NCBI GenBank assembly: GCA_046082625.1
Contig: JBJTYE010000156.1
Location: 1 to 46,872 of the forward strand
Source: Actinomycetota bacterium
GTDB taxonomy: Bacteria; Actinomycetota; Acidimicrobiia; Acidimicrobiales; Ilumatobacteraceae
Reading direction: 5' to 3'
DNA: 46,872 bases
The notes under the pieces were generated by a model, which worked only from the letters and a program-made list of their open reading frames with translations, did no database searches and was not told where the DNA came from. Shown here piece by piece: positions 1 through 35,318 of this stretch (position 1 is its first letter; the number at the start of each line of letters is the position of its first letter). Made by a program: the position numbers and the translations under genes.

Positions 1-801
1 ATCGAGGATTGCTTCGCGCTCGGCGCGCTCGGTGGGATAGCCGATGGGAAGGTCCAGATCTCGCCACGGCACACGTGGCAACTCCGACTGGGGCGGATCC
101 CAGGGATGATGAGGATCGGGAAAGCTCATCCAGCAGAACCAGTCGCGGTCGGCATCGAGCGAATCGAGCCAGGCGATGGTTCGGTCGGCGACCCAGTCGG
201 TGTGGTACCACTCCCGCGGAATCGGATTGTGGTGGACCTGGGGTGCGCCGGTGTCTCCACCTCCGGCCGCGTTGACCTGGAGTTCCTGATCAACCACTCG
301 ATAGAACATGCCGACCGCTTCGGGATGGTTCCTCAGGATCCATTGTGCGTAATGGAACGAGCCGGCGGCACCGTGCGTGGCGGTCTCCATGTGATCGAAC
401 CCGCGATGAAGATGACCGTCATGTGATTCCTGGTGTCGACCCGACACCGCCAACCGGTTCTCGGTGAATCGCAGGAACGGATCGAGAAAGGGTTCGAAGT
501 GGGCCTTTCCGATGAGAGCCGTCGCATAGCCGGCGTCGTGCAGAGTCGTGGCCACGCTCGGCGCGTCGATCGGCAGGGGAACCCCGTTCATCCAGACTCC
601 GTGGGTGGCCACGTGCTGTCCGGTGATCATGGTGGCCCGTGACGGCATGCAGACCACGCTCTGGGGATGGGCCCGTCGATAGTTGATACCGGTGGCCGCC
701 AACGCGTCGATGTGCGGAGTGCGGGCCACGGCCCCGCCGTTGCAGCCGAGAGCGTCGTAACGCTGTTGGTCGGTGGTGATGAAGAGGATCTTGCGTCCCA
801 T
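1..801 (-). CDS. Formylglycine-dependent sulfatase (arylsulfatase family); 3' end runs off the left edge
   Basis: Absent from the ORF track because there is no stop inside the window. My own reverse translation from ATG 801..799 gives MGRKILFITTDQQRYDALGCNGG...HPQSVVCMPSRATMITGQHV (C-x-P-x-R sulfatase signature) ...LIGKAHFEP. The frame stays open to nt 1. ATGA start/stop overlap with the upstream SRPBCC gene. Confidence 0.85.
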   Translation of the reverse strand, partial: MGRKILFITTDQQRYDALGCNGGAVARTPHIDALAATGINYRRAHPQSVVCMPSRATMITGQHVATHGVWMNGVPLPIDAPSVATTLHDAGYATALIGKAHFEPFLDPFLRFTENRLAVSGRHQESHDGHLHRGFDHMETATHGAAGSFHYAQWILRNHPEAVGMFYRVVDQELQVNAAGGGDTGAPQVHHNPIPREWYHTDWVADRTIAWLDSLDADRDWFCWMSFPDPHHPWDPPQSELPRVPWRDLDLPIGYPTERAEREAILD

Positions 802-1247
802 CAGGGTCTCCCTTTCGACATCAGGTCGCGCAGTGTCTCGAGGGCCTCGCCGGCGGCGCCACCGATGATGAGGGCCATCACGTCCGGACTCATGTCGGTG
901 CCATAGAGAACGCAGCACCGTCGATCTCCGTCAGGGATCACGTCCACCGTTCCGAGGTGCTGGGTGATGATGGGGTTGTTGACGATGCGGTACTGGAACC
1001 GACGCAGAACGTGGTCGAGGGTGACGATGTCCTCTTCGAATTGCAACCCGCTGGCGAGAGTGATCCACCGCTTGGGCCCTTCCACCCGATACGAGGTGAT
1101 CGGAAACCATTCGTGCAGCCGGGCCGGATCCCCCACCAGTTCCCACACCGCCTCGGCCGGGGAGTCGATGAACACATGGCGCCGCACCGTCCCCACCGCC
1201 CGGACTCTAGTTGCGGTCGACTCGATCGAGCCATCCACCGGTTCCAT
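801..1247 (-). CDS. SRPBCC (START / polyketide-cyclase-like) family protein
   Basis: 148-aa ORF of the typical small SRPBCC size, with the pattern FIDSPAEAVWELVGDPARLHEWFP. Its stop overlaps the sulfatase start. The start could be a few codons downstream. Confidence 0.6.
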   Translation of the reverse strand: MEPVDGSIESTATRVRAVGTVRRHVFIDSPAEAVWELVGDPARLHEWFPITSYRVEGPKRWITLASGLQFEEDIVTLDHVLRRFQYRIVNNPIITQHLGTVDVIPDGDRRCCVLYGTDMSPDVMALIIGGAAGEALETLRDLMSKGRP

Positions 1248-1280
1248 GGACTCGGCAGGTCGCCCATGTGCTAGAGAGAC

Positions 1281-3353
1281 ATGACCGGTGTCGTCTTCGG
1301 CGCCGCCGGGACGGGGGACAGCGATGGGGGCATCGTGACGGAGATGAATCGGATCCTGACATCCGGTCGTTCGTCGCTCGTCCAGTTGGCCCCGGCTCTC
1401 GGTCTGATCGCCGTCCAGTTGCTCTTCTTCGGAGTTCCGGCCGGCGCCTGGATGCGGGGCGCAGTCATCGGATTGCTGACGGCCCTTCTGGCCGTGGGCA
1501 TGGCGTTGGTCTATCGGGCCAACCGGGTGATCAACTTCGCTCAGGCGGACCTGGGTTTCGTTCCGACCGTTCTGGCCGTCGGCCTGATCGTGTTCTCCGG
1601 GATGCCCTACGCCTTCGGACTCGCCGTCGGATTGCTCGGCGCCATCGTGCTCGGCGCGGTGGTGGAGTTGGCCATCGTGAGGCGGTTCTCCCGATCACCG
1701 CGACTGGTTCTCACCGTCGCGACCATCGGCATCACCCAGTTGTTGGCGGTGCTGGCACTGCAGATCCCCGAACTCTGGGACGAAGCCGCCGCCTCCCAGC
1801 GCATTCCGGCGCCCTTCGACGCCAAATGGACCATCGGCTCGTTCATCTTGAACGCCAACGACTTCATGGCGGTGATCGTTGCACCCCTGGCCATGATCCT
1901 GGTCGGCCTCTTCCTGTCGCGGACCCGACTCGGGGCCGCGGTGCGGGCTTCGGCCGAACGAAGCGAGCGGGCCTCCCTGCTCGGTATTCCCGTCGGATGG
2001 CTGTCGACCGTGGTCTGGATGTTGGCGGCCGGATTGTCCTACCTCGCTTTGTTCCTGCGCGCCGGGATTCTTGGTGTGCCCCTCGGAAGCGCGCTGTCGC
2101 TCTCCACACTGGTGCTGGCCCTTGCGGCTTTGGTGATCGGACGGTTGCGGCACCTTCCGACCGTGGCCGCCGCCGCGGTCGCACTCGGAATCTTCGAGTA
2201 CGGCGTGCAATGGAATGCGTCGAGTCCGCTTCTCGTGGCCCCCTTCGTCGGCGCGGCGGTCATGATCGCGCTGCTCATGCAGCGGCGCAGTTCGGCTCGC
2301 TCTGACCAGGACGTCCAGATGTCATGGCGATTGGCCGACGAGGTGCGGGACGTTCCTGCCGATGTGGCTCGACTTCCATTGGTCCGGGTGCTTCGATGGG
2401 GAGGATGGGTCGTCGTGGCGGCGACCCTGGTGGTTCTGCCCCTGTGGTTGCGAACCGACCAGATCATCAAGGTCACCGCCATCGCCGTGTACGCCATCAT
2501 CGGAGTGTCGTTGGTGGTCCTCACCGGTTGGGCCGGACAGATCTCGCTCGGACAGTTCGGTTTCGTGGCCGTCGGCGCCGCCGTGAGTGCCAAGTGCACG
2601 TCCGCATGGGACATGGATCTCACCTTGTCGCTCCTGGTGGGCGGCGCCGCCGGAGCCGTTGCGGCCTTCGTCGTCGGACTTCCGGCTCTTCGCTTGCGCG
2701 GTCTGTACCTGGCGGTCACCACCTTGGTCTTCGCTCTGAGCATCACCTCGTGGCTGCTCAACGACCGTTTCTTCGCCTGGATTCCCCGTCGACGGCTCGA
2801 ACGACCACCCCTGCTCGGACGTGTCGACGTCTCGACTCCGGTGCGCTTCTACGTCTATTGCTTGGCGGTGTTGATCCTGGTCCTGGTGGCGGTTCGGGGC
2901 ATCCGACGCAGCCGGACCGGACGGGCCATCCTGGCCTTGCGCGACAACGAGCGGGCCGCGCTGTCCTATGCCGTTCCGGGAACGTCGGTGAAATTGACCG
3001 CCTTCGCCGTATCGGGAGCGATCGCCGGAGTCGGCGGCGGACTGTTCGCCCATCTGAATTTCAGTTTCGATCTGAGCAGTTATGGAGTGGGTCGCAGTCT
3101 GGACGTCTTCACCGCCTCCATCGTCGGCGGGTTGGGATCTTCGTTCGGTGCAGTTCTGGGAGCGGTGTATCTGCGGGGAGTGGAGTGGTTCGTGACCGCT
3201 GCCGAATGGCGGTTCCTGTCGTCGGGTGCGGGAGTGCTGGCCGTCTTGTTGATTCTTCCGGGAGGATTGGCCGCTCTCGTGTTCCGTCTGCGGGACGAGT
3301 CGATTCGCCGAGCCGTCGTCCGCTCGAGGAATGAAGGAGGACCGAATGAGTGA
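1281..3353 (+). CDS. HAAT-family (Liv-type) ABC transporter permease, fused LivH-LivM
   Basis: 690-aa polytopic ORF. The N half has the LivH-like ALVYRANRVINFAQADLG motif; the C half has the LivM-like VLTGWAGQISLGQFGFVAVGAAVSA motif. Precedes the cognate ATPase and binding-protein genes. Confidence 0.85.
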   Translation: MTGVVFGAAGTGDSDGGIVTEMNRILTSGRSSLVQLAPALGLIAVQLLFFGVPAGAWMRGAVIGLLTALLAVGMALVYRANRVINFAQADLGFVPTVLAVGLIVFSGMPYAFGLAVGLLGAIVLGAVVELAIVRRFSRSPRLVLTVATIGITQLLAVLALQIPELWDEAAASQRIPAPFDAKWTIGSFILNANDFMAVIVAPLAMILVGLFLSRTRLGAAVRASAERSERASLLGIPVGWLSTVVWMLAAGLSYLALFLRAGILGVPLGSALSLSTLVLALAALVIGRLRHLPTVAAAAVALGIFEYGVQWNASSPLLVAPFVGAAVMIALLMQRRSSARSDQDVQMSWRLADEVRDVPADVARLPLVRVLRWGGWVVVAATLVVLPLWLRTDQIIKVTAIAVYAIIGVSLVVLTGWAGQISLGQFGFVAVGAAVSAKCTSAWDMDLTLSLLVGGAAGAVAAFVVGLPALRLRGLYLAVTTLVFALSITSWLLNDRFFAWIPRRRLERPPLLGRVDVSTPVRFYVYCLAVLILVLVAVRGIRRSRTGRAILALRDNERAALSYAVPGTSVKLTAFAVSGAIAGVGGGLFAHLNFSFDLSSYGVGRSLDVFTASIVGGLGSSFGAVLGAVYLRGVEWFVTAAEWRFLSSGAGVLAVLLILPGGLAALVFRLRDESIRRAVVRSRNEGGPNE

Positions 3354-6288
3354 TCGCGGTCGGTGGTCCTCGGTGGTCCATCCGGTCCAGGCCTTGCGTC
3401 GCGCCTGTGGTGGCGAAGCGGCCTTTCCGCTGGTGGTGCTCTTCGGTCTCAACGCCGTGGACGAGTTGGATCGGGCGGCGTTCGGCATCCTTCTCCCCGA
3501 GATCCGCGACCATTTCGGCTTGGATCTGAGCACCATGCTCGGCCTGGTGGCCCTGGCGAGCGTGGCCGCTCTGGCCTTGCAGGTTCCCATCGCCCAGTGG
3601 GCGGATCGCTCCCGCCGCATTCCCTTGGTGGTGAGCGGAGCGCTGGTCTGGGCGATCTTTTCCGGACTGACCGGGCTCGCCACCGGGTTGATCGTTCTCA
3701 CCATCGCCCGCAGTGGCTCGTCCTTGGGCAAAGCGGTGATCGATCCGACCCACAATTCCTTGATCGCCGACTACTACCCGATCGAATCCCGCACCAAGGT
3801 GTACTCCATTCACAGAGCGGCCAATGCCGTGGGAAGTTTCCTCGGCCCTCTGGCCGCCGGCCTGCTGGCCTACTCGCTCGGCTGGCGGGCTCCGTTCCTG
3901 ATCTTCACCATCCCCACCGTGATCTTCGCGGTGCTGGCCTTGCGCCTGCGCGAGCCGATCCGCGGCCGCTGGGAACGCCTGGCCACGGGGGCGGCGGCCG
4001 AGATCGTGGACACCGAGGAAGCACCGCCTTCGTTCTCGGAGAGCTGGCGCACCGTGCACAAGGTTCGGTCGCTGAAGCGAGTCTGGTACAGCCTGCCGTT
4101 CCTGGCCACCGGACTGATCGGCTTCGTGACCTTGGCCTCGTTGCTGTACGAGCGCGAGTTCGGCCTGGACGAGCGGGCCCGCGGTGTGGCGGCCGCCATC
4201 GCCGAACCGTTCCAACTGGTCGGCCTGATCGTGGGATCGCGCTGGATCGCCAAGAAGTTCGCCGGCAACGTGGCCGGGCTGACCCGTGTGGGTGGGACGG
4301 TGGCCATCGCCGCCGCCGTGCTGTCGGCGGCGTTCGCGCTGGCCCCCAACATCGTGGTGGCCGTCGCCGTCAATTGCGTGATCTCGGCGGCTCTGGCCAT
4401 TCTCGCTCCGGCGATCTTCGCCAGCTTGTCCTTGGCCATCCCGCCGCGCGCCCGAGCCACGGGATTCTCCGTGGCGTCGCTGTGGGTGATTCCTGGATTG
4501 GGGGTCCTGCCGATCATCGGCTGGGTAGCGGACCAGTTCTCCATTCGCGTCGGCATGTTGGTGATGATTCCGCTGTTCATCATCGGCGGCCTCATTCAGC
4601 GTTCCATCGGCAACGTCATCGCCGATGACATCGCCCAGGTCTGGCAGTCGGCCGCCGCCCGGTCGGAAGCGGTCTACGAGCGCCGACAGGGACGATCGAA
4701 GCTCCTCATCATGCGGGCGGTTCACGCCGGCTACGACGACCGCATGGTGCTCGAAGGTATCGATCTCGATATCGAAGAGGGAGAGATCGTGGCACTGCTC
4801 GGCACCAACGGTGCCGGCAAGAGCACGCTTTTGAAGTGCATCAGCGGCGTGGTCGAAGCCGAACGGGGGGCCATCGTCTTCGATGGTCGCGATATCACCC
4901 ATGCTCCTCCGCACGAGATCGCCGCCCTCGGCATCGTGCAGATGCCCGGGGGAGCCGGAGTGTTCGGCTCCCTGACCGTCCGCGAGAACCTGGAACTGGC
5001 GGGATGGACGAATCGCCGGGATCCGGCCGGTGTGGTGGCCGCCCACGAAGAGGTCCTTCGTATGTTCCCGGTCCTGGCGACCCGCCTCGACGAGCCGGCG
5101 GCGAATCTGTCGGGGGGTCAGCAGCAGATGCTGGCGCTGTCGATGAGTTTCGTCATGCGGCCCCGGGTGCTCCTGGTGGACGAGCTGTCGTTGGGATTGG
5201 CCCCGGTGGTGGTCGGACAGATGCTTCCGGTCATCGAGCGGTTGGCGGCCGATGGAGTCACGGTGGTGCTCGTGGAGCAGAGTGTCAACGTGGCTCTGAC
5301 CATCGCCGAGCGGGCCTACTTCTTGGAACGAGGACGTATCCGATTCTCGGGCCCCACCGCGGAATTGCTGAACCGTCCGGACATTCTGCGATCCGTGTTC
5401 CTGTCCGGAGCCGATGCCGTAGGAGAGACTTCGTCGAGCGTCGGATCATCGTCGAAAGCGGATCACGACTCGACCTCGGTAGGTGATGGCGAAGTGGTTT
5501 TGCAGACCGACGAGATCGTGGCGTCCTTCGGCGGAATCAGGGCCGTGGATCGCGTGTCGATGTCGGTGCGGGCACGCGAAATCGTCGGGATCATCGGTCC
5601 GAACGGCGCCGGGAAGACCACGCTGTTCGATCTGGTGTCCGGGTTCACCGAGTCCCAGAGCGGACGGGTCCACATCGGCGGCCAGGACGTGTCCGGGCTC
5701 GGACCCCATGCTCGGGCCCGTGCCGGACTCGGTCGATCGTTCCAGGACGCGCGGCTCTTCCCGGAGATGACCGTGCGCGAAACCCTGGCGGTGGCCCTGG
5801 AGCGTTGGGTGACGAACAAGAGCGTGCTGGCCGCGGCCATGCACCTGCCCCCGGCATTCGATGCCGAGTCCGCTACGGCGACACGGGTCGACGATCTGAT
5901 CGAACTCATGGGACTGGGTGACGTCGCCACCAGGTTCGTGCGGGAACTCTCCACCGGGACGCGGCGGATCGTGGATCTGGCCTGTCTGGTGGCCCATCGA
6001 CCGAGCATCATCCTTTTGGACGAACCGTCGTCGGGCTTGGCTCAACGTGAAGTGGAGGCCTTGGCGCCGGTGGTGCGGAGATTGCGCACCGAGATGGGGT
6101 CGGCACTGGTCATCATCGAGCACGACATCCCGTTCGTGTCCTCGGTCTCCGATCGTTTGGTCGCTCTCGATCAGGGCCGGGTGATCGCCGATGGACGTCC
6201 GACCGACGTTCTCGCTCATCCGGTGGTGGTCGAGTCGTATCTCGGCACATCCAGTGCCGCAATCGCCCGGTCCGGGCAAGGGGGATAG
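3346..6288 (+). CDS. Fusion protein: MFS-like membrane domain + LivF-type NBD + LivG-type NBD
   Basis: Single uninterrupted ORF. Start moved to ATG 3346 (MSDRGR), which is preceded by AAGGAGG.
- N-terminal ~430 aa are multi-TM with the MFS motif-A-like WADRSRRIPLVVSG.
- NBD1 carries GTNGAGKST / LSGGQQQ / LLVDE.
- A Ser-rich linker follows.
- NBD2 carries GPNGAGKTT / LSTGTRR / ILLDEP and the LivG-like GLGRSFQDARLF. Confidence 0.85.
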   Translation: MSDRGRWSSVVHPVQALRRACGGEAAFPLVVLFGLNAVDELDRAAFGILLPEIRDHFGLDLSTMLGLVALASVAALALQVPIAQWADRSRRIPLVVSGALVWAIFSGLTGLATGLIVLTIARSGSSLGKAVIDPTHNSLIADYYPIESRTKVYSIHRAANAVGSFLGPLAAGLLAYSLGWRAPFLIFTIPTVIFAVLALRLREPIRGRWERLATGAAAEIVDTEEAPPSFSESWRTVHKVRSLKRVWYSLPFLATGLIGFVTLASLLYEREFGLDERARGVAAAIAEPFQLVGLIVGSRWIAKKFAGNVAGLTRVGGTVAIAAAVLSAAFALAPNIVVAVAVNCVISAALAILAPAIFASLSLAIPPRARATGFSVASLWVIPGLGVLPIIGWVADQFSIRVGMLVMIPLFIIGGLIQRSIGNVIADDIAQVWQSAAARSEAVYERRQGRSKLLIMRAVHAGYDDRMVLEGIDLDIEEGEIVALLGTNGAGKSTLLKCISGVVEAERGAIVFDGRDITHAPPHEIAALGIVQMPGGAGVFGSLTVRENLELAGWTNRRDPAGVVAAHEEVLRMFPVLATRLDEPAANLSGGQQQMLALSMSFVMRPRVLLVDELSLGLAPVVVGQMLPVIERLAADGVTVVLVEQSVNVALTIAERAYFLERGRIRFSGPTAELLNRPDILRSVFLSGADAVGETSSSVGSSSKADHDSTSVGDGEVVLQTDEIVASFGGIRAVDRVSMSVRAREIVGIIGPNGAGKTTLFDLVSGFTESQSGRVHIGGQDVSGLGPHARARAGLGRSFQDARLFPEMTVRETLAVALERWVTNKSVLAAAMHLPPAFDAESATATRVDDLIELMGLGDVATRFVRELSTGTRRIVDLACLVAHRPSIILLDEPSSGLAQREVEALAPVVRRLRTEMGSALVIIEHDIPFVSSVSDRLVALDQGRVIADGRPTDVLAHPVVVESYLGTSSAAIARSGQGG

Positions 6289-6290
6289 CC

Positions 6291-8009
6291 ATGCAACCAG
6301 CAAGCAGCACCGGTTCAGGATCCGGCACGTCCGGTTCGCTGAAGAAATGGGGACCACTGGCGGCCATCGCCGTGGTCGCCGCGGCGATCATCGCCGTCGT
6401 GGCCTCATCGGGGGGAGGCGATGACGAGGAGACCGCCGTGTCCAGTCCGGTGGCGTCGACCGAGGCGCCGACCGCGGACGGAGAGTGGCAGTATCCGCTG
6501 TCCTATCCCGAGGCCGAGGAATTGGGGATCGCCGAGACCATCGACTGGGGTGAACGATGCGACACCGAGCGCGGACGCCTGGCGGTGGTCGACTACTTCG
6601 CCCCGTTCTGCATGGCCCCTTTCGAAGGTGACAACGGAGGAGCGACTGCGACCGGAGTCACCGGTGACACCATCACCATCGTCCATTACCAGGGACCCGA
6701 CAACGATCCGGTCATCGCCTACATCACCGATGCCATCAAAGCCGATGACACCAACGCTCAGGAGTTCGACACCGTCGCCAACTTGCTGCCGTATTTCGAG
6801 CGGTACTACGAGTTCTACGGGCGCAAGGTCGAGATCGTGCGGTACGAGAGCACCGGCTTGGCCACCGATGAAGTCACGGCCCGAGCCGACGCCCAACGCA
6901 TCGCCGAGGAATACAGTCCCTTCGCCGTGGTCGGCGGACCGGCTCTGACCAACGCCTTCGCCGACGAACTCGCGGCTCGGGAAATCGTCTGCATCTCGTG
7001 TGGTGGAGGCAGTGCCGAGTGGTTCGCCGAACGCGATCCCTACGTCTGGGGGATCGACGGCAGTGCGGCCCAGAAGCAGGTCCACGTGGCCGAATTCATC
7101 GGCAAGCAGTTGGCCGGCAAGCCGGCCGTGCACGGGGGTGACGAATTCGTGGACACGGTCCGCAAGTTCGGGTACGTCTACGTGGAGGGAAGTTCGGAAT
7201 CCAAGGTCCTCGCCGATCAGATGGTGGAGCGACTGGATGCCGTCGGCGCCCGACCCGTCGAGGTGCTGCCCTATGTTCTCGATCCGGGGAGCATCCAGCA
7301 GACCGCATCCCAGATCATCGCCAAGTTGAAAGCGGCCGGGGTCACCACCGTGATCCTGTCCACCGACCCGGTGGCACCTCGTGACTTCACCCGTGAGGCC
7401 ACCGCCCAGGAATACTTCCCGGAATGGCTGGTCGCCGCGGCCACCCTCACCGACACCGTCGCCTTCGGGCGGTCCTACGATCAGCAGCAGTGGGCCCACG
7501 CCTTCGGCGTGACCAGCCTGGCGGCTCGTATCGATCCGGAGATCAGCGGCATCTACTCGGTCTACAAGTGGTTCACCGGGGAAGAACCACCAGCGAACGA
7601 GTCGATCGGGGTGTTCATGCCGGGCTTCCAGCTGCTCTTCTCGGCCCTGCAGAGCACCGGTCCGAATCTGACGCCTGACACCCTCGCCGCCGCGATCCGC
7701 GGCTTCGAGACGGTCAAGGCCATCACGCAACCCTGGCTCACCTGGGGGGACTGGGGCATCTGGGACACCGCCGACTACAACGGCATCGACGATGCCACGT
7801 TGTTCTGGTGGGATCCGGACGCCGAAGGACCGGACGAGGTGCGCAAGACCGGACGCGGCATGCTCGTCTATCCCGACGGCGGGAAGCGCTACCTGCCCGG
7901 TGAATGGGGAACCGAGGACCGACTCTTCATCGACGAGGGAGCCGTGAGTCTCTACACGACCCCTCCGCCGGGGGAGGAGCCGCCGAGTTATCCGAGTCCG
8001 GCGGGCTGA
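6291..8009 (+). CDS. ABC transporter substrate-binding protein (type I PBP, LivK-like), N-terminally TM-anchored
   Basis: 572-aa ORF starting 3 nt after the ATPase stop, with GGGGGA as a Shine-Dalgarno. N-terminus is KKWGPLAAIAVVAAAIIAVVASSGGGDDEE, a hydrophobic anchor with no lipobox Cys, followed by an acidic linker. Its position in the Liv-type operon supports the call. Confidence 0.7.
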   Translation: MQPASSTGSGSGTSGSLKKWGPLAAIAVVAAAIIAVVASSGGGDDEETAVSSPVASTEAPTADGEWQYPLSYPEAEELGIAETIDWGERCDTERGRLAVVDYFAPFCMAPFEGDNGGATATGVTGDTITIVHYQGPDNDPVIAYITDAIKADDTNAQEFDTVANLLPYFERYYEFYGRKVEIVRYESTGLATDEVTARADAQRIAEEYSPFAVVGGPALTNAFADELAAREIVCISCGGGSAEWFAERDPYVWGIDGSAAQKQVHVAEFIGKQLAGKPAVHGGDEFVDTVRKFGYVYVEGSSESKVLADQMVERLDAVGARPVEVLPYVLDPGSIQQTASQIIAKLKAAGVTTVILSTDPVAPRDFTREATAQEYFPEWLVAAATLTDTVAFGRSYDQQQWAHAFGVTSLAARIDPEISGIYSVYKWFTGEEPPANESIGVFMPGFQLLFSALQSTGPNLTPDTLAAAIRGFETVKAITQPWLTWGDWGIWDTADYNGIDDATLFWWDPDAEGPDEVRKTGRGMLVYPDGGKRYLPGEWGTEDRLFIDEGAVSLYTTPPPGEEPPSYPSPAG

Positions 8010-8677
8010 TCAGCGCCGTCGAGGCACCAATCGATCGGTTCCTGGCCGTGATCCGCGAGCGCCGCGTTGGCTCGGGAGAACGGCCGGGAACCGAAGAATC
8101 CATTGTGAGCCGACAACGGTGACGGATGGGCGGACTCGATGATGGTGTGGCGCGACGCGTCGATGAGGGTGCGCTTCTTGCGCGACGGTGCCCCCCACAA
8201 CATGAACACCACGTGATCGGACTTGGCGTCGACGCAGGAGATGACGCGGTCGGTGAAGCGTTCCCAGCCGCGCCCTTGATGCGATGCGGCGCGTCCGGCG
8301 GCCACCGTCAACGTGGTGTTCAGGAGCAGGACTCCGCGCCGGGCCCATTGTTCGAGACAGCCGTGATCGGGAATCGGACAGCCGAGATCGGTGTGCAGTT
8401 CCTGGAAGATGTTCCGCAACGAGGGCGGGGTCGAGACCCCGGGTCGCACCGAGAAGCACAACCCATGGGCTTGTCCGGGTCCGTGATACGGGTCCTGTCC
8501 GAGAACGACCACTCGGGTGGAGGCGTGCGACGTCAAGTGCAGTGCGGCGAAGACGTCCTCTCGCGGAGGGTGGACCGGACCATTGCGGCGTTCCTCGGCC
8601 ACGAAACTCTGAAGATCCTGCCAGTAGGGCTGATCGAACTCGGAGCGGAGCAACGGGTTCCAGTCCGTGGTGGGCAC
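7988..8677 (-). CDS. ung: Uracil-DNA glycosylase, family 1
   Basis: Near-canonical motifs [33 protein letters not shown] and [13 protein letters not shown]. Start placed at GTG 8677 ([10 protein letters not shown]), giving 229 aa like E. coli Ung. The track ORF extends to 8797, where it would run into the divergent gene. Confidence 0.93.
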   Translation of the reverse strand: [229 protein letters not shown]

Positions 8678-8736
8678 GACGACATTCTGGCGCGGTCGCC
8701 CCACCGGTGAGACCTCGGCCCAATAGCCTGCCGACC

Positions 8737-9741
8737 GTGGGCGACGCGCAGTGGAGGGGACGGAATCGGGTCCGGCTGGCGTCCCTGCCCACACCACTCG
8801 AGCTCGGTCCGACTCTTCCGAGCGGAGCCCGCCTGTGGATCAAACGCGATGATCTCACCGGCCTCGCACTCGGTGGCAACAAGGCGCGTAAGTTGGAGTT
8901 CCTGTGCGGTGAGGCCCGGGCCAACGACGCCAACTGCCTGATCACCGTCGGTGCGGGTCAATCGAATCATTGTCGGATGACGGCGGCGGCTGGAGCGTTG
9001 CTCGGGATGGAGACTCACGTCGTTCTCTCCGGAACGCGTCCGGCTCGATACGAGGGCAATCAACTGCTGTCCGATCTTCTCGGTGCTCATCAACACTTCA
9101 CCGGTGCCGAGCCGTCGCAGTGGGGACTCCTGGAGATCGCTCGCGACGAATTGACCGAGGAATTGACCGCTCAGGGGCTGCGACCGTATTCGATTCCCAT
9201 CGGTGGATCGACACCGGTGGGCGCACTCGGCTACGTGGCGGCCTTCGAGGAGATGATGGTGCAGTTCGATGAACAGGGCATCGCACCGCGGGCCGTGGTG
9301 GTGACATCGTCGAGCGGCGGAACGCACGCCGGTCTGGTTGCGGGCCGGGCCGCCTGGCGGCACGAACACGGCGGCCGCGATCTGCCGGAGGTGATCGCCA
9401 TCGGGGTGTCCAAAGGTGTGGTGGCCGGTCTGCCCGATGTGGCCGAACTGGCCCGGGAGGCCATGGCCCTCGCCGGTCTGGCGGGGGAGATCCGTCACGA
9501 TGACGTCGTGGTCGAAGCCCGCTGGCTGGGTCCGGACTATGCCGTGGCCACCGAGGAGTCGCGCGCCGCGCGGCGATGGGGAGCCGAACACGGCGCTCTC
9601 GTTCTCGATCAGGTGTACACGGCCAAGGGTTTCGCCGGACTGCTCGGTCTCGACGAATCCGGTCGGTGGAGTGGCACTGATGACGTCGTGTTCATCCACA
9701 CCGGCGGCTATCCGGAGATCTTCGTTCATCATGGATCGTGA
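8737..9741 (+). CDS. D-cysteine desulfhydrase / ACC deaminase family PLP-dependent enzyme
   Basis: LPTPLEL...IKRDDLTGLALGGNKARKLEFL (PLP-lysine motif), GAGQSNHCR and FIHTGG, collinear with E. coli DcyD. Start set to in-frame GTG 8737; the 151 upstream codons of the track ORF are antisense to ung. Confidence 0.85.
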   Translation: MGDAQWRGRNRVRLASLPTPLELGPTLPSGARLWIKRDDLTGLALGGNKARKLEFLCGEARANDANCLITVGAGQSNHCRMTAAAGALLGMETHVVLSGTRPARYEGNQLLSDLLGAHQHFTGAEPSQWGLLEIARDELTEELTAQGLRPYSIPIGGSTPVGALGYVAAFEEMMVQFDEQGIAPRAVVVTSSSGGTHAGLVAGRAAWRHEHGGRDLPEVIAIGVSKGVVAGLPDVAELAREAMALAGLAGEIRHDDVVVEARWLGPDYAVATEESRAARRWGAEHGALVLDQVYTAKGFAGLLGLDESGRWSGTDDVVFIHTGGYPEIFVHHGS

Positions 9742-10810
9742 CCTCACCGGTGCCGACGGGCGAGCCCTGTCCCGCGACACACTGGCGGTGGTGGCCGGGC
9801 GCCCGGGTGCCCCTGGCGATCCGCTCAACGAACCACTCGTCCTGGCGTCCAATTTCCGGGCCGGTCCGGAGTACGCCCGCACGCACGGGACCCGAACCTG
9901 GGAGGCCCTCGAAGACGCAGTCGGTGCACTCGAAGGTGGATCGTGCGTGTCCTATGCCAGCGGTTTGGCGGCGGCCCAGGCCATCGTCTTCGCCCTGCGA
10001 CCACGGTTGGTGGTGATTCCGGCGGTCAGTTATCTCGGTGTGCGATCGCTGCTGGCCGCGTCCGAGGATCGCGGTCACTTCGCCGTTCGGTATCTCGATT
10101 CCCTGGAACCCGACGCCGTGCGCCGGACCCTGGCGACTGACTGTGCCGATGCGGCCGGTGTGGTGTTGTGGTTGGAGTCTCCGGCCAATCCCACCCTCGA
10201 GCAGGCCGATCTCCCGGCACTGTGTGCTCTCGGAAACGAATTCGGTGTCGCCACGGTGGTGGACTCGACCTTCGCCTCGCCGGTGGCGCAGCAACCCCTC
10301 GCGTTCGGAGCCTCGGTGGTGATGCATTCGGGGACCAAGTTCATCGGCGGCCACAGTGATCTGTTGATGGGATTGGCGGTGGCCATCGATCCGGAGGTGC
10401 TCGCGGGTCTGCGCGAAGCCCGCACGTTGCAAGGAGCCACCCCGGGAGCCCTCGAAGCCTTCCTGGCGTTGCGCGGTCTGCGCACGTTGCCATTGCGCTA
10501 TCGGGCGGCCTCCGACAACGCTCGCTACCTGGCGGAGCGATTGGGCGCGCATCGGGCGGTCACCTGGGTCCGCCAGGTGGGGCCGATGGTCAGTTTCGTG
10601 GTGGAGGGAGGCGCGCCGGCAGCCGACGCCGTCTGCGATCGCGTGCGTCTGGCAGTGCCGGCCACCAGTCTCGGCGGAGTGGAAACCACCCTCGAGCGAC
10701 GGCAGAAGTATCCCGGCGACGCCGCCGTCGATCCCGGCCTCGTGCGGATGAGTGTGGGCATCGAGTCACCCGAGGACATCTGGGCCGATCTGATGCAGGC
10801 TCTCGCCTAG
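9731..10810 (+). CDS. Cys/Met-metabolism PLP enzyme (cystathionine gamma-synthase/lyase family)
   Basis: Starts at in-frame ATG 9731 (MDRDLTG), overlapping the previous stop by 11 nt. Motifs LESPANPTL, HSGTKFIGGHSDLLMG (PLP Lys) and SLGGVETTLE. Confidence 0.85.
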   Translation: MDRDLTGADGRALSRDTLAVVAGRPGAPGDPLNEPLVLASNFRAGPEYARTHGTRTWEALEDAVGALEGGSCVSYASGLAAAQAIVFALRPRLVVIPAVSYLGVRSLLAASEDRGHFAVRYLDSLEPDAVRRTLATDCADAAGVVLWLESPANPTLEQADLPALCALGNEFGVATVVDSTFASPVAQQPLAFGASVVMHSGTKFIGGHSDLLMGLAVAIDPEVLAGLREARTLQGATPGALEAFLALRGLRTLPLRYRAASDNARYLAERLGAHRAVTWVRQVGPMVSFVVEGGAPAADAVCDRVRLAVPATSLGGVETTLERRQKYPGDAAVDPGLVRMSVGIESPEDIWADLMQALA

Positions 10811-21375: not shown

Positions 21376-22080
21376 TCAGGGGCCGAGGTAGGCCCCAGCC
21401 AGTACATCGTCGCCGATGTCGGCGGCTCGTCCGGTGACCTGGACGCGACCCTGGGCGATCAGGACGGCCTGATCGGCGATTCCGAGCACGGTGCGCGCGA
21501 ACTGCTCGACGACGAGGACCGACACACCATGGGCGGCGATGGCGGCCACTTGTTCGTAGAGTTCGGCCACCACGATCGGGGCCAGCCCCATGGACAATTC
21601 GTCGAGCAGCAGGACGGCAGGGTCGGTGGCCAGCGCCCGGGCGAGCGAGAGCATCTGCTGCTCACCTCCCGACAAGGTGCCGGCCAGTTGTTGCCGTCGC
21701 TCGGCGAGTCGGGGGAAGCGTTCGTAGGTCCGTTCTTCGATCTCGTTCAGTCGTCGACCCATGTAGGTGGCCATCAACAGGTTCTCGCGCACCGTGAGAT
21801 TGGGAAACACGCCGCGACCTTCGGGAATGGTGCACAGTCCGGCCCTGGCCAGTGCATGGGCCGATGCGCCGGTGACATCGCGTCCGGCCACGACGATGTG
21901 TCCTGAGGTCGGCTTGAGCAGTCCGCTCAGCACTTTGATGGTGGTGCTCTTGCCTGCGCCATTGGGTCCGAGAAGGGCGACGACTTCACCGGTGTTCAAA
22001 GTCAGGTCCACCCCGTGCAGTACTTCGATGGTTCCGTATCCGGCGTGGATGCCGCGCAGCTGGAGAATCGGAGCGTTCAT
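21376..22080 (-). CDS. HAAT-family ABC transporter ATP-binding protein (LivF-type)
   Basis: GPNGAGKST, LSGGEQQML, LLLDELS and IPEGRGVFPNLTVRENL. ATGA overlap with the upstream LivG-type gene. Confidence 0.9.
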   Translation of the reverse strand: MNAPILQLRGIHAGYGTIEVLHGVDLTLNTGEVVALLGPNGAGKSTTIKVLSGLLKPTSGHIVVAGRDVTGASAHALARAGLCTIPEGRGVFPNLTVRENLLMATYMGRRLNEIEERTYERFPRLAERRQQLAGTLSGGEQQMLSLARALATDPAVLLLDELSMGLAPIVVAELYEQVAAIAAHGVSVLVVEQFARTVLGIADQAVLIAQGRVQVTGRAADIGDDVLAGAYLGP

Positions 22081-22787
22081 GAAGCCCCCAGGTACGCCGA
22101 GAGCACGAGCGGGTTCTCCTTGATGGCCGATGGTGTCCCGTGGGCGATGATGACTCCCAGGTCGAGAACGAAGATCTCGTCGCAGACCCGCATCACCAGT
22201 CCCACATCGTGCTCCACCAGGAGAACGCCCAGACCTTCGGCCGCCAAGGCGCGCAAGAGGGCTCCGAGATGTTCGGTCTCGGCCTCGTCGAGTCCCGAGG
22301 CCGGTTCGTCGAGCAGAAGCAGTCGGGGTCTGGTGGCCAGCGCGCGGGCGATCTCGACCAGACGCGCCGAGCCGGTCGGCAGATCCCCGGCCGTGCGGTC
22401 GGCGAGATCGGCGATTCCCACCCGTTCCAGGATCGAGTTCACCCAGGTCTTCGTATCGGGTACCCGCGCCAGTTCCGCTGCCACGCGCACGTTGTCCCGT
22501 ACCGACAGTGATCCGAAGAGTTCGAGTCGTTGGAAGGTACGGGCCACGCCGAGTCGAGCTCGTCTATGGGGGGAGATGTGGGTCACGTCGTTTCCGTCGA
22601 TCGACACCGATCCGGAGGTCGGTACCTGGATGCCGCTGATGACGTTGAACAAGGTCGTCTTGCCTGCACCATTGGGGCCGATCAGTCCGGTCACCAGTCC
22701 GGCAGGAACGGAGATCGCCACACCCCCCAGGGCCATGACACCGCCGAAGCGAACTCTGACGTCGTGGGTTTCGAGCAACGCCGTCAC
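22077..22787 (-). CDS. HAAT-family ABC transporter ATP-binding protein (LivG-type)
   Basis: The last 236 codons of track ORF 22077..24116, from GTG 22787 (VTALLETHDV), a GTGA overlap with the permease stop. Motifs FGGVMALGGV, GPNGAGKTTLFN, RTFQRLELF and LLLDEPASG. Confidence 0.9.
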   Translation of the reverse strand: MTALLETHDVRVRFGGVMALGGVAISVPAGLVTGLIGPNGAGKTTLFNVISGIQVPTSGSVSIDGNDVTHISPHRRARLGVARTFQRLELFGSLSVRDNVRVAAELARVPDTKTWVNSILERVGIADLADRTAGDLPTGSARLVEIARALATRPRLLLLDEPASGLDEAETEHLGALLRALAAEGLGVLLVEHDVGLVMRVCDEIFVLDLGVIIAHGTPSAIKENPLVLSAYLGAS

Positions 22788-25057
22788 AACGTGACCCCCA
22801 GACGACGTTCGGCCAAGGTGATCTCGGCGTCGCTGAAGGGTTCGGCGAGTCCGACGAGGTCGGGTGAGTCGCGATGCAGACGCGGGGCGGTTTCCAGCGT
22901 CCGCCTCGCTCCGAGGCCGAACACGGCGATCAGGAAGATCATGGCGATGAGCCGTTGTCCGGTGGCATCGAGAGCGGTCGCCCAATCGACGCCCGCGGCG
23001 ACCACGAGTCCGATGACGAGCAGGGCCGTGGCCGTGATCCGTCGGCGCGGGGAACCGCTGGTGAGATCGACCAGATTCGGTGTCACCGCCAGGAACCAGA
23101 ACATGGCTGCGACGAAGAACGACCAGTGGGAGATGATCTCGAGAGCGTTCAAGGCCCAGATTCCGATGCCACCGAGGGCCGACGCCGCCAGCAGGGACCA
23201 GCGTCCCTGAAGGGAGCGGAAGTTGTCGGCGGTTTGCGAGGCCGCTCCACTGGGATTGCGGCCGAGGGTCACGCCGATGAGACCCGGCCCGACCTTGGTC
23301 CAATTCCTGACCGAGGGGACCACGGTGGCCAGCACCGAGTTCCCGCCCAGCAGGAAGCCGCCGAACAATGCTCCCGCGACAGTCCCCACTCCACCGACCA
23401 CGGCCAAGAGAACGAGCGGAAGACTCTGCATGAAGTCGAACTGCTGCGGACTCACTTTGTCGCCGGCCAACGCGCCGGCGATGGCCGCGATGCCGGCCGA
23501 GATGGCGAAGGCCAGAACCTTGGCCCGGGTCAGACTCATGCCCAACGTTGCCGCCGCAGCCGGCGAGTCCTTCAGAGCGATCAGTTGACGTCCCAGTCGG
23601 CTGCGACGCAGTGCCACGACGCCGAGACCGAGCAGCGAGAAAGCGCAGGCCGCCAGGATCAGTCGGCCTCGCGGACTGTCGATGGTGATCAATGGCAGGT
23701 CCAACACCGGCACGTCGATGTTCCCGGTCTGGAACGTCTGACGTTGGTTGAACACCAACTTGGTCACCAACACGGCGAAGGCTGCGGTGGACAAAGCCAA
23801 ATAGATCCCCGAGAGGCGGAGAGCCGGAAGTGCCACCACGGCACCCACCACGGCCACGATGGCCACGGCCGCTGCCAAGGTGAGCAGGTTCCCGTCCCCG
23901 GGAAGTTTGGACATGGCGATGGCTCCGAGTCCGGTGAAGGTGAGCGGTGCCAGGGACATCTGACCGGCGTAACCAGTGAGGGGCACCAGGGAGAGCGCGG
24001 CGATGGCGAAGGTGAAGGCGTTCAACAGCAACAAGGTGTTGGAGCGCGTGAGCATTCCGGAGATCCCGACGGTGGCCACCACCAACGCCACTGCGCCGAG
24101 CACTGCCGTACTCCATTCGGGAACGCGATTCTCTTCGCGAAAGCGGGCGGTGCCGGTGCGCAGACGGGTCTGGGGCCGCGTCAAGAGGGCGATGAAGAGC
24201 ACGATGGTGGGAATCGAGGCCCGTAGTCCGGACAGTCCGAAGCCGAACACGCTCTGCGGGAACCAGGTCTCGTCCGAGAGCATCAGGTAGTAGGCATCGA
24301 GCAGTCCGAGCAGTGCGGCCCCGAGGAAGGTGAGCGGCAGGTTGCGGAGCCGTCCGATGATCGCTGCGGCGTAGGCATTGATCACCAGCAGCACCAAGGG
24401 CTCGATGTTGAGTTGCTGCTCCCCGGCCAAGAGGATGCCGGCCAGTCCGGCCAGGCAGGCACTAGTGGCCCAGGCGAACATGGCCACGTGATCGGGCCGA
24501 GCACCGTTCAACTCGACCAGATTGCGATCGTCGACCACGGCTCGCATGGCCACGCCCATGCGGGTCCGGAACAGCACCAGTCGCAAGAAGACGGCCACCA
24601 ACACGGCACAGCCGAAGGTGATCAGCTTGTGCCAACTCACGTTGACGCCCCCGAGGGATACGATGTTGCCGTCGAAGAACTTGAGGAATGCCGTGCGGCT
24701 GGCATCGCTCGGCCAGATCCAATTGGCCAACCCGACCATGAAGGCGAAGAGCGCGACCGTCACCGAAAGGCGCACCACTTCAGTCGTGCCTTGGAGGCCG
24801 CGCATCACCAGACGTTCGGTGAGCATGCCGAACAGAGGGCAGAGCACGAAGAGCGTGATGATCAGCGCCAGAGGTGCCGGAACTCCCCAGTCGAAACGCA
24901 ATTGCCAGTAGGTGAAGGCCGCCAACATCCCGGTGGCACCGTGGGCGAGATTGAAGATGCCCGAGGTGGTGTAGGTGACCACCAATCCGCTGGCGACCAC
25001 GGCATAGATGGCCCCAGTCGACAGCCCGATGATGGTGAACGTCAGGAGTTCCTGCAT
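22784..25057 (-). CDS. HAAT-family ABC permease, fused LivH-LivM
   Basis: 757-aa polytopic ORF. N-terminus is MQELLTFTIIGLSTGAIYAVVASGLVVTYTTSGIFNLAHG (LivH). The C half is LivM-like (LVPLTGYAGQMSLAPLTFTGLGA). Confidence 0.88.
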   Translation of the reverse strand: MQELLTFTIIGLSTGAIYAVVASGLVVTYTTSGIFNLAHGATGMLAAFTYWQLRFDWGVPAPLALIITLFVLCPLFGMLTERLVMRGLQGTTEVVRLSVTVALFAFMVGLANWIWPSDASRTAFLKFFDGNIVSLGGVNVSWHKLITFGCAVLVAVFLRLVLFRTRMGVAMRAVVDDRNLVELNGARPDHVAMFAWATSACLAGLAGILLAGEQQLNIEPLVLLVINAYAAAIIGRLRNLPLTFLGAALLGLLDAYYLMLSDETWFPQSVFGFGLSGLRASIPTIVLFIALLTRPQTRLRTGTARFREENRVPEWSTAVLGAVALVVATVGISGMLTRSNTLLLLNAFTFAIAALSLVPLTGYAGQMSLAPLTFTGLGAIAMSKLPGDGNLLTLAAAVAIVAVVGAVVALPALRLSGIYLALSTAAFAVLVTKLVFNQRQTFQTGNIDVPVLDLPLITIDSPRGRLILAACAFSLLGLGVVALRRSRLGRQLIALKDSPAAAATLGMSLTRAKVLAFAISAGIAAIAGALAGDKVSPQQFDFMQSLPLVLLAVVGGVGTVAGALFGGFLLGGNSVLATVVPSVRNWTKVGPGLIGVTLGRNPSGAASQTADNFRSLQGRWSLLAASALGGIGIWALNALEIISHWSFFVAAMFWFLAVTPNLVDLTSGSPRRRITATALLVIGLVVAAGVDWATALDATGQRLIAMIFLIAVFGLGARRTLETAPRLHRDSPDLVGLAEPFSDAEITLAERRLGVTL

Positions 25058-25100
25058 CGGTCAGCCGATCCGAACCTTCATGACGGGACCGCGTTCGCGA

Positions 25101-26558
25101 TCAATTGGGTCGCGACGGATCGACTCCGTTCGTCACATCGCCGAAATCACCGGTGATTTGCACCACACCAGCCGGATCGCAGTGCCATCCGTTGCCGTTG
25201 TCGTCGGCGGAGCCGATCTCGGGGAACAGGCGCGTCCATGTGCCGTTGCGGACTTCCATGATGATGGTGCAGGGAGGCGGAACGTTGGCCGACGGGTTGG
25301 TCTCGGCGTGCAATCCACCGCCGGTCCAGGAACTGATCTGCTTGCCCTGGGCCAGAACGCATTCACGCTCCAGCACGTTGCCATTGGCATCGAGGCAGGC
25401 ATTGGCGGCCGTGACGAACAAGAGCATGGCCGACGTCGTCTGCAGACCGAGACCGGCGATGCGGCCTTCGGGGTTGTAGGTCGCCATCATGTCCAAGTAG
25501 TCGGTCATGGCCGGGAAGTCGGCGGCTTCCTCGAAGGGTGCGTACATGGTGCGAACTTTGAAGCCCTCGGTGGCCTCGGCGTTGCCGGGAGCGACCATGT
25601 CGGCGCTATAGAAGTTGGCATCGTTGAGGACGAGTTCGGGGACGTAGCCGACCTCGCGCATGGCCTTGTACAGCAGGATCAGATTGCCGGGTTCACCGAC
25701 GAAGGACATGGCGGTGATGTTCTCGGACTTCAACTTCTGGGCAAAGGGAGCCCAGTTGGCTTCGCCCGCCGGGTTGTACGAGATCATGGTCGGTTCGCCG
25801 AATCCGCCCACTGCGTCCATGGTGGCCGCCAACTGATCGGCGACGCTCTTGGTGGTCAAGAAGTCGCCGTAGAAGATGGCGACCTTCTTGATCTGCTCCG
25901 GGTAGTTGTTCTTGGCCCAGATCAACCAGGTGGCCGGCTTGTCGTTGGCCGGGTTGGGGATGGGCTGGACCTTGCCATTGGCCATGGCCGCTGCCGCCGT
26001 CACGGTGTAGCCGGCGAAGGAGACCATGCCGCACTCGTGGAAACGCGGGTACATCTGGTCGTCGAAGACCCATCCACCGCCGACCATGGCGAAGACCTCG
26101 CTGCAAGCCTGTTCGATGGCCGGAGGCACGTTGAACAATTTGCCATCGAGGTCGACGATCTCGATCGGAAGACCGCGTACTCCGCCTTGTTCGTTGCACC
26201 ACTCGGCGAAGGCTCGGGCGGCATCGAGCATTTCGATGGTCAGCCCGGGCACTGCCTCGTAGCCGTGATCGCTGGCGGCACCCAACTTCAGAGTCGGTCC
26301 ACCGTTCTGGCCATCGGCGATGGTGGGAACGCCGGCTTCGGTGGCCGGACCGCATGGACTCGGCAGGTCACCGAACAAAGTTCCACTCGGGGCATCGGTC
26401 GTGTCGGGAGCTTCGGTCGAGGACGTCTCCGGAGCAGTGGTGTCGCCCGCCGAAGTGCTCGACGAATCTTCGCGGTTGGAGCACCCGGCTGCGGCCGCCA
26501 GGGCCACGATGCCGATGATCCCCACTGAACGACGGACTGATCGACGGAAACTCCCCAT
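25101..26558 (-). CDS. ABC transporter substrate-binding lipoprotein (LivK-like type I PBP)
   Basis: Signal peptide with a lipobox-like VALAAAAGCSN, then a Ser/Thr/Glu/Asp linker. First gene of the SBP-permease-LivG-LivF operon. Paralogous to the partial ORF at 46036..46872. Confidence 0.8.
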   Translation of the reverse strand: MGSFRRSVRRSVGIIGIVALAAAAGCSNREDSSSTSAGDTTAPETSSTEAPDTTDAPSGTLFGDLPSPCGPATEAGVPTIADGQNGGPTLKLGAASDHGYEAVPGLTIEMLDAARAFAEWCNEQGGVRGLPIEIVDLDGKLFNVPPAIEQACSEVFAMVGGGWVFDDQMYPRFHECGMVSFAGYTVTAAAAMANGKVQPIPNPANDKPATWLIWAKNNYPEQIKKVAIFYGDFLTTKSVADQLAATMDAVGGFGEPTMISYNPAGEANWAPFAQKLKSENITAMSFVGEPGNLILLYKAMREVGYVPELVLNDANFYSADMVAPGNAEATEGFKVRTMYAPFEEAADFPAMTDYLDMMATYNPEGRIAGLGLQTTSAMLLFVTAANACLDANGNVLERECVLAQGKQISSWTGGGLHAETNPSANVPPPCTIIMEVRNGTWTRLFPEIGSADDNGNGWHCDPAGVVQITGDFGDVTNGVDPSRPN

Positions 26559-35311: not shown

Positions 35312-35318
35312 GAGAACT

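Follow-up and report, generated by a model that had tools for sequence, protein, structure and literature searches.

ATP-binding cassette (ABC) transporters, which are primary transporters, and the secondary transporters of the major facilitator superfamily (MFS) constitute the two largest transporter superfamilies and are usually seen as alternative solutions. In contig JBJTYE010000156.1 of a freshwater Ilumatobacteraceae bacterium (class Acidimicrobiia, assembly GCA_046082625.1), of which positions 1 to 46,872 were analyzed (46,872 nucleotides, hereafter the window), the two are covalently joined. The gene at 3346..6288 encodes a single polypeptide, MFS-LivF-LivG, in which an MFS module precedes the two ATPases of a Liv-type importer, and it is flanked by genes for a fused LivH-LivM permease (livHM) and for a substrate-binding protein (SBP), here called SBPa. 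There is very little doubt that these genes represent an MFS-bearing subfamily of Liv-type importers, centered on Acidimicrobiia, that is real, conserved, and uncharacterized. The fusion is kept under purifying selection across this bacterial class, which abounds in lakes and rivers as well as in soils and engineered waters.

The closest described importers are the HAAT/Liv systems (E. coli LivJ/K-LivHMGF, TC 3.A.1.4). The operon shares with them a permease with two BPD_transp_2 domains, a LivG nucleotide-binding domain (NBD) with the BCA_ABC_TP_C tail (PF12399) and the motif IEHD, a LivF NBD with Gln in the H-loop (VEQS), and a type-I (cluster B) SBP with the LivJ fold. On the other hand, it differs from them in the 12-transmembrane (TM) MFS module placed N-terminal to LivF, in the F-then-G order on a single chain, and in the fusion of LivH to LivM. 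Its SBP, of 572 amino acids (aa), is anchored by a TM helix and is too divergent for Pfam, and NBD1, the LivF-type domain, reads PGG where the ordinary LivF of the window has PEG. None of the NCBIfam Liv equivalog cutoffs was reached (LivG, 301.9 vs. 362; LivF, 249.8 vs. 441; LivM, 82.6 vs. 366; LivH, 46.6 vs. 379), and the operon represents a distinct, divergent HAAT/Liv subfamily rather than a Liv orthologue. The urea transporter UrtBCDE was considered and rejected: the UrtE score (308 vs. 285.8) sums two NBDs, UrtD (301 vs. 304), UrtB (66 vs. 250), and UrtC (62 vs. 296) fall short of their cutoffs, and SBPa is not UrtA-like.

The N-terminal module belongs to the MFS (TC 2.A.1) by a profile score above cutoff, 12 TM helices, and motifs A and B. 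Its best match in the Protein Data Bank (PDB), in both sequence and structure, is the Spinster group (HnSpns, 6E8J/6E9C; human SPNS1/SPNS2), which has the same 12-TM fold with motif A. As carriers of lipids or lysolipids, Spinsters stand alone, with neither an NBD fusion nor an SBP partner. However, the identity to them is only 16-22%, and the assignment to this subfamily is loose because DgoT, VMAT2, and MdfA score almost equally well.

MalK and MetN carry C-terminal accessory or regulatory domains, and NrtC/CmpC carry an SBP-like domain. The fusion resembles these proteins in that its NBD polypeptide also bears an additional domain with the potential to modulate the ATPase (for the CmpABCD importer, see PMC13287603). 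In contrast, their extra domains are soluble, C-terminal, and cytoplasmic, whereas here a whole membrane transporter stands at the N-terminus. LplT-Aas is an MFS fusion with an acyltransferase. To our knowledge, none of the known MFS fusions, whether with kinases or with acyltransferases, contains ABC NBDs inside a complete ABC importer operon. LplT-Aas and the Sensor Kinase-MFS fusion family (TC 2.A.1.34; PMC3924187) are similar to the present gene in that an MFS permease is covalently tied to a cytoplasmic enzyme or signaling module. The TRAP, TTT, and TAXI-GltS systems are comparable, in gene arrangement only, with a clade of standalone relatives described below, in which an SBP gene adjoins the gene of a secondary carrier and no ATPase is encoded close by; the carrier of that clade is an MFS protein and not of the DctQM/TctAB/GltS type, its SBP is of the LivJ type I and not of the DctP/TAXI/TctC type, and neither fold is related to those of the three systems. 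The families that recruit SBPs have been given as ABC, TTT, and TRAP, with no mention of the MFS, and the TAXI-GltS class has been described (2025; PMC12344293).

The MFS-LivF-LivG Gene and Its Operon

The sequence 3346..6288 translates into 980 codons with zero internal stops, and its sole stop codon is the terminal TAG (6286-6288), in agreement with the initial annotation, which had read it as a single open reading frame (ORF) without a change of frame. The longest ORF opens at ATG 3331, but ATG 3346 is likely the start of the gene because direct reading of the sequence places a Shine-Dalgarno-like GAAGGAGG at 3333..3340 (core AAGGAGG, 3334-3340), 5 nt ahead of it.

The gene is genuine and the fusion is real. 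More than 120 full-length homologues (972-995 aa, 76-97% identity, identical Pfam set) were found in independent metagenome-assembled genomes (MAGs) and metagenomes, and at least 20 sequencing runs of freshwater, drinking water, and wastewater, from seven studies, contained the exact fusion sequence. Positions 3000-6600 are covered by contigs of four runs from four different studies, which showed substitutions only and zero gaps or joints. Population variants occurred at 23 sites of the ORF, of which 20 were synonymous and three non-synonymous (13 and one, respectively, in the MFS part), and both the codon-position bias and the synonymous excess extended over the entire ORF. Some public LivHM-MFS "fusions" do resemble frameshift products of error-prone assemblies (locus L086), but an artefact of this kind around the present fusion, in which a frameshift in sequencing or assembly, or an overlooked stop, had joined separate MFS, livF, and livG genes, is extremely improbable: it is refuted at the contig level by the gap-free contigs of four studies, and the independent full-length copies, hundreds in number, the coding pattern of the whole ORF, and an MFS-NBD1 junction free of indels in 122 sequences also argue against it. 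The LivHM-MFS single ORFs themselves (P0294, P0361, and others; L086 8001..11435; L039 1443..4580) were rejected as a further architecture, since the ABC genes downstream in L086 are fragmented, as expected of a frameshifted, error-prone assembly.

The layout proposed in the initial annotation, an MFS-like membrane part of ~430 aa followed by a LivF-type ATPase, a Ser-rich linker, and a LivG-type ATPase, was recovered by Pfam, NCBIfam, and alignment, and each motif quoted there was located, including the MFS motif-A-like WADRSRRIP at aa 85-93. Domain assignment and prediction of TM topology for the N-terminal region gave a match to Pfam MFS_1 over aa 33-379 (E 2e-38; 132.5 bits vs. a cutoff of 33.4) and 12 TM helices. 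An AlphaFold2 (AF2) model of aa 1-445 (pLDDT 88, pTM 0.85) reproduced these 12 helices, with the central loop and a helix at the C-terminal end (aa 425-444) both on the cytoplasmic side. Together with the hydropathy profile, it indicated two six-helix bundles with both termini in the cytoplasm. Foldseek matched the model best to the bacterial Spinster homologue 6e9c/6e8j (E 8e-14, 22% identity), and then to DgoT of E. coli, human SPNS2, SPNS1, VMAT2, and MdfA; the TM-scores lay between 0.64 and 0.76. Spinster 6e8j was also the best hit of the PDB sequence search (E 1e-14), with a match confined to the N-terminal half and with several other MFS families nearly equal.

Pfam detected two ABC_tran domains in the fusion protein. 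The LivF/UrtE-like match of NBD1 covers aa 456-674, and the LivG/UrtD-like match of NBD2 covers aa 718-968. NBD1 is 44% identical to the separate LivF, and NBD2 41% identical to the separate LivG, of a second Liv operon in the window. The LivG-specific tail BCA_ABC_TP_C is located at aa 945-968 of NBD2 (30 bits vs. a cutoff of 25.5). The solved structure closest to NBD1 was 1ji0 (E 7.5e-55), and the PDB searches yielded no solved homologue of the whole fusion. NBD1 contains a Walker A motif GTNGAGKST (486-494), a Q-loop region VQMPGG (531-536), a signature LSGGQQQ (588-594), LLVDE (609-613), and VEQS (643-646), in which Gln replaces the H-loop His. The corresponding motifs of NBD2 are GPNGAGKTT (751-759), RSFQD (797-801), LSTGTRR (868-874), ILLDEP (889-894), and IEHD (924-927). 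The NBD2 signature is degenerate, and that of the LivG of the second operon is equally so (LPTGSAR); the pair shows the usual Liv asymmetry of one consensus site and one degenerate site. In both NBDs, the motifs of the Walker A and B sites, of the signature, and of the H-loop were invariant or nearly so across 122 full-length members of the family. The PGG of the NBD1 Q-loop region (4936..4953) was invariant in the same 122 sequences and constitutes a family-specific change at the coupling interface between the NBD and the transmembrane domain.

The livHM gene ends with TGA at 3351-3353 and overlaps the ATG of the fusion gene by 8 nt (ATGAGTGA), and only 2 nt separate the stop of the fusion gene from the start of SBPa (TAG-cc-ATG). 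The three genes are predicted to be translationally coupled and to encode one machine. The initial annotation had rightly placed livHM and the fusion gene in one operon, but it overlooked SBPa as the third gene. Its identification of 1281..3353 as a fused LivH-LivM permease is supported by the two BPD_transp_2 domains, and the product is predicted to translocate the substrate across the membrane for the ABC part. LivF and LivG, joined in a single chain, are predicted to form the usual asymmetric NBD heterodimer that must power LivHM, because the operon contains no NBD gene besides the fusion gene.

SBPa itself had no Pfam or NCBIfam match, and neither SBPa nor LivHM was matched in the PDB sequence search. 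Its homologues at 62-85% identity carry Peripla_BP_6 (PF13458), and some of them are named ABC substrate-binding proteins. The AF2 model (pLDDT 78) consists of an N-terminal TM helix, a disordered low-complexity tether (~aa 40-65), and a two-lobe alpha/beta core, in addition to a Cys-rich N-terminal part and a beta-rich C-terminal part. The top PDB matches of the core in Foldseek were SBPs of the LivJ/LivK type (3hut, 1z15, 4q6b; E ~1e-14, 12-16% identity). The solved SBPs that it resembles at this level of identity have amino acids, aromatic acids, or fatty acids as ligands. The substrate of the operon need not be a branched-chain amino acid.

Conservation and Distribution of the Family

The MFS module is characterized by N36-x-x-D39-E40-x-D42 in TM1, D87-R88..R91 in motif A (D-R-x-x-R-R between TM2 and TM3), R122..G128 in motif B (R-x-x-x-G in TM4), P134-T-H-N-S-L-x-x-D142-Y-Y, and P366-P-R-x-R370. 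In 69 sequences that represent all architectures, D87, R88, and R91 of motif A, P366 and R370 of its echo in the C-domain, and R122 and G128 of motif B were invariant, and so were N36, D39, E40, and D42 of TM1 as well as P134, H136, S138, D142, and Y144. Identities per domain were computed on the 122 full-length MFS-F-G sequences, for a distant and a near set. They amounted to 52 and 76% for the MFS, 56 and 73% for the connector between TM12 and NBD1, 63 and 79% for NBD1, and 57 and 70% for NBD2, so that the MFS is about as conserved as the NBDs, whereas the F-G linker reached only 12 and 15%. The stretch from the end of TM12 to the Walker A motif of NBD1 comprised 62 residues with zero indels in 122/122 sequences. 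In contrast, the segment between NBD1 and the Walker A motif of NBD2, which contains the F-G linker, ranged from 47 to 92 residues, and the linker appears to behave as a flexible tether.

A search of 1.8 billion representative proteins with the MFS domain alone gave 326 matches below 1e-30. Architectures were assigned for the best 150 of these, using the window's own domains, and comprised MFS-F-G (913-1036 aa, ~20 clusters, down to 31% identity), MFS-F only (678-755 aa), and standalone MFS (420-470 aa). A scan of species-representative genomes with a seven-sequence MFS alignment returned at least 569 stretches, and the best 80, which were examined (69-90% identity), were all from Ilumatobacteraceae or Acidimicrobiia MAGs. 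The taxa named in the protein searches were Ilumatobacteraceae, Acidimicrobiales, Acidimicrobiia, Microthrixaceae, Actinomycetota, and one Acidobacteria MAG. The operon was also found in soil and water metagenomes. Furthermore, 169 genome and metagenome loci were surveyed for gene order, SBPa being counted only where there was room downstream. A single-ORF MFS-F-G was present at 72 of the 80 genome loci, with LivHM upstream in 70 of the 72 and SBPa downstream in 59/59. The metagenome loci included 52 single-ORF MFS-F-G genes, 44 of them with LivHM upstream, and SBPa was downstream in 41 of 43.

The initial annotation had named no known characterized ABC system with such an architecture. This holds in that the family is uncharacterized, but the architecture is neither rare nor specific to one genome: the search of protein databases for the same domain order showed that the full-length homologues, more than 120 in number, are spread across Acidimicrobiia and form a large family centered on this class. 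No paper on an MFS-LivF/LivG fusion or on an SBP-linked MFS was found in the literature search. No NCBIfam model is specific to MFS-LivF-LivG, and an entry may exist in the curated catalogues TCDB or InterPro, which lay outside the scope of the search. The automatic protein names of JGI do reflect the architecture. Thousands of such proteins are annotated either as "MFS transporter" or as "branched-chain amino acid transport ATP-binding protein", and each name hides half of the protein.

Several loci deviate from the common arrangement. In one split form (L084), SBPa, LivHM, and MFS-F are followed by a separate G, and in another (L085) F is fused to G and the MFS is encoded separately. The most divergent fused member (L083, 31% MFS identity) carries two SBPa-like genes (1662..5716) upstream, followed by LivHM and MFS-F-G. 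In L114, L123, L141, L161, L162, and L083, one LivHM/MFS-F-G set is accompanied by two or three SBPa paralogues in tandem, which suggests that one transporter may serve several ligands. In freshwater MAGs labeled "Bifidobacterium breve" or "uncultured Bifidobacterium" (L015, L020, L028, L039, and L044), the operon occurs at 78-85% identity; these labels look wrong.

A clade of standalone MFS proteins (P0468-like, related to L087 and L095) is 47-48% identical to the window's MFS. At 6 of its 7 informative loci, an SBPa-family gene is located directly downstream of the MFS gene, and the flanks, which extend to as much as 9 kb, contain no LivHM, LivF, or LivG. At the remaining locus (L100), an IS30-type transposase (1283..2434) takes the place that SBPa has in its relatives. 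In a neighbor-joining tree, the clade was sister to the fused operon L101 (98% bootstrap, 64% MFS identity), and its SBPa was also nearest to that of L101 (59-63%, vs. 35-44% to others). Because both genes are closest to those of L101, MFS and SBPa are concluded to have been inherited as a pair. The ABC genes are suggested to have been lost from this locus or moved elsewhere, because fused forms occupy the surrounding branches. Orphan MFS members (L089, L116, and L117) have neither SBPa nor ABC neighbors and keep all signature residues, and this conservation argues that the MFS domain may work by itself. A full LivHM/MFS-F-G/SBPa operon and an orphan MFS paralogue occur together on contig JAESFX010000001.1 (1.57 Mb; L116, L133).

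Possible Roles of the MFS Module

The MFS module is intact, and its conserved motifs, the pattern of selection, and the survival of standalone and orphan members lead us to infer that it functions as a rocker-switch transporter. The best explanation overall, to which we give an even chance, is that the operon encodes a Liv-type importer of a subfamily with an obligatory, working MFS module linked to SBPa. A mechanism for this importer is proposed with somewhat less than even confidence. The MFS would provide a working translocation path driven by an ion gradient, or would at least act as a substrate-occupied rocker-switch. The tethered SBPa would serve two routes, the ATP-driven LivHM and the secondary MFS, and the rigid connector from TM12 to NBD1 would let both routes sense each other's state for cross-regulation or gating. 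The MFS is considered to be functionally tied to SBPa because the two are co-inherited in relatives that lack ABC genes nearby, and mechanically tied to LivF because the length of the connector is invariant. In its boldest form, which we regard as doubtful, the proposal would make the MFS an SBP-dependent class of secondary carriers beside TRAP, TTT, and TAXI-GltS, and the fused form a hybrid, allosterically coupled primary/secondary machine. If the MFS cooperates with the SBP or the ATPases, nutrient uptake would here use a new mode of energy coupling or of regulation, and there would be a testable account of how slow-growing, low-nutrient Acidimicrobiia scavenge substrates. Among the three roles that the initial annotation had offered for the MFS, a passive tether is disfavored, and the MFS+SBP clade and the orphans favor a second translocation path over a pure sensor.

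Several observations weigh against this proposal. The predicted outer-face residues D39, E40, D42, P51, R54, W180, R181, R279, and D396, placed there by the helix order of the MFS model and compared as a test of SBP docking, were equally conserved in the orphan MFS proteins, and they may act on the substrate, on protons, or in gating instead of forming a docking site. In L083 (8001..11111), N36, D39, E40, and D42 of TM1 are replaced by Y, F, Q, and E, respectively, with motifs A and B kept; its MFS may use a different coupling ion or substrate, or may have a non-transporting role. The structures of the MFS (aa 1-445) and SBPa were predicted as single chains, and contact of the MFS with LivHM or SBPa is a proposal only. 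The contig pieces on which MFS and SBPa adjoin each other without ABC genes are 19 kb long at most, so that LivHM and F-G could sit elsewhere in those genomes, and the deep topology of the MFS tree had a bootstrap support of 33%. In addition, none of the RNA runs searched for the fusion sequence holds it.

The alternative that survives best, though it is rather unlikely, is that the fusion serves co-expression only. The MFS would then act as a secondary transporter in its own right, for instance by handling a related nutrient, offering a low-affinity route, or exporting a by-product, and would be welded to the NBDs for stoichiometry and co-localization, with neither SBP dependence nor allosteric cross-talk. 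The canonical MFS fold, the orphans with all of their signature residues, and the split and orphan forms, which imply that the covalent link is dispensable, are all in keeping with such a role. However, it does not account for a connector that is conserved like the domains themselves and of fixed length from TM12 to Walker A in 122 sequences while the F-G linker is free to vary, nor for the adjacency and co-inheritance of MFS and SBPa in the clade without ABC genes nearby.

The fixed length and conservation of the connector into NBD1 would fit a sensor or gate (transceptor), in which a non-transporting MFS binds substrate or senses the proton motive force or a lipid and regulates LivF/LivG through the connector, in a manner comparable to MalK, MetN, and NrtC. 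The ratio of one MFS per NBD pair and the retention of the fusion in L083, despite the loss of the TM1 acidic cluster, point in the same direction. On the other hand, the MFS+SBPa-only and orphan clades would have nothing to regulate, and the motifs of the transport cycle, A and B, are invariant; a sensor or gate is considered quite unlikely. A decayed MFS that merely holds the NBD pair by LivHM as a passive anchor or scaffold is very unlikely, for although ABC systems widely tolerate accessory fusions and a short connector would keep the NBDs at the membrane, importer NBDs need no anchor, the MFS is conserved at about the level of the NBDs with invariant polar intramembrane and motif residues, its population variants are almost all synonymous, and standalone homologues persist.

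Second Liv Operon and Neighboring Genes

The features of the two Liv operons are listed in Table 1. The second operon (21376..26558) is classical, with separate LivF and LivG and no MFS, and the internal contrast that the initial annotation had drawn between the two operons holds. LivH is fused to LivM in both of them, whereas the MFS and the F-G fusion occur only in the first.

Table 1. Coordinates of the MFS-LivF-LivG operon, the domains of the fusion protein, and the second Liv operon in the window.
Feature	Position	Residues	Strand	Basis
livHM, fused LivH-LivM permease	1281..3353	690 aa	+	two BPD_transp_2 stretches, E 1.9e-52
Fusion gene MFS-LivF-LivG	3346..6288	980 aa	+	continuous ORF, homologues, gap-free contigs, variant pattern
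MFS module	3346..4617	aa 1-424	+	Pfam MFS_1, AF2 model, Foldseek, invariant residues
Connector, TM12 to first strand of NBD1	4618..4701	aa 425-452	+	cytoplasmic helix aa 425-444 in AF2 model
NBD1, LivF-type ATPase	4702..5415	aa 453-690	+	NCBIfam UrtE/LivF-like match, identity to LivF of second operon
Ser-rich inter-NBD linker	5416..5496	aa 691-717	+	Ser-rich stretch ~aa 696-704
NBD2, LivG-type ATPase	5497..6285	aa 718-980	+	PF12399 tail, NCBIfam LivG/UrtD-like match
SBPa, membrane-anchored LivJ-fold binding protein	6291..8009	572 aa	+	AF2 model, Foldseek, Pfam-bearing homologues
Second operon, LivF	21376..22080		-	
Second operon, LivG	22077..~22850		-	
Second operon, fused LivHM	22784..25057		-	
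Second operon, Peripla_BP_6 SBP	25101..26558		-	

A divergent pair of genes at 1..1247 (- strand) is located upstream of the first operon and encodes a sulfatase, which is cut by the window start, and an SRPBCC/Polyketide_cyc2 protein. This pair is kept in L001 and L002 at 81% identity and is absent from distant loci. The pair could hint at sulfated substrates. The gene neighborhood was, however, rejected as a guide to the substrate, since no recurrent theme emerged: sulfatase and SRPBCC are found here, GH2/LacI in L083, and ROK, a NagA-like amidohydrolase, and SIS in L084. A scan of 700-8900 for promoters and terminators gave nothing that exceeded the shuffled expectation.

At its 3' end, the operon is bounded by a convergent uracil-DNA-glycosylase (UDG) gene. 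The longest ORFs of this UDG-family gene (7988..8797, - strand) and of the following PALP gene (D-cysteine desulfhydrase/cysteate sulfo-lyase-like; 8284..9741, + strand) overlap. The true start of PALP is probably near 8760, because the syntenic locus L001 has UDG and PALP calls of 222 and 337 aa that do not overlap. The Cys_Met_Meta_PP ORF at 9416..10810 is probably also over-extended (381 aa in L001). A third binding-protein gene of the Peripla_BP_6 type is present at 46036..46866 (- strand), where it is truncated by the window end, and a DUF1800 gene and a DUF1501 gene are adjacent at 33692..36689 (+ strand).

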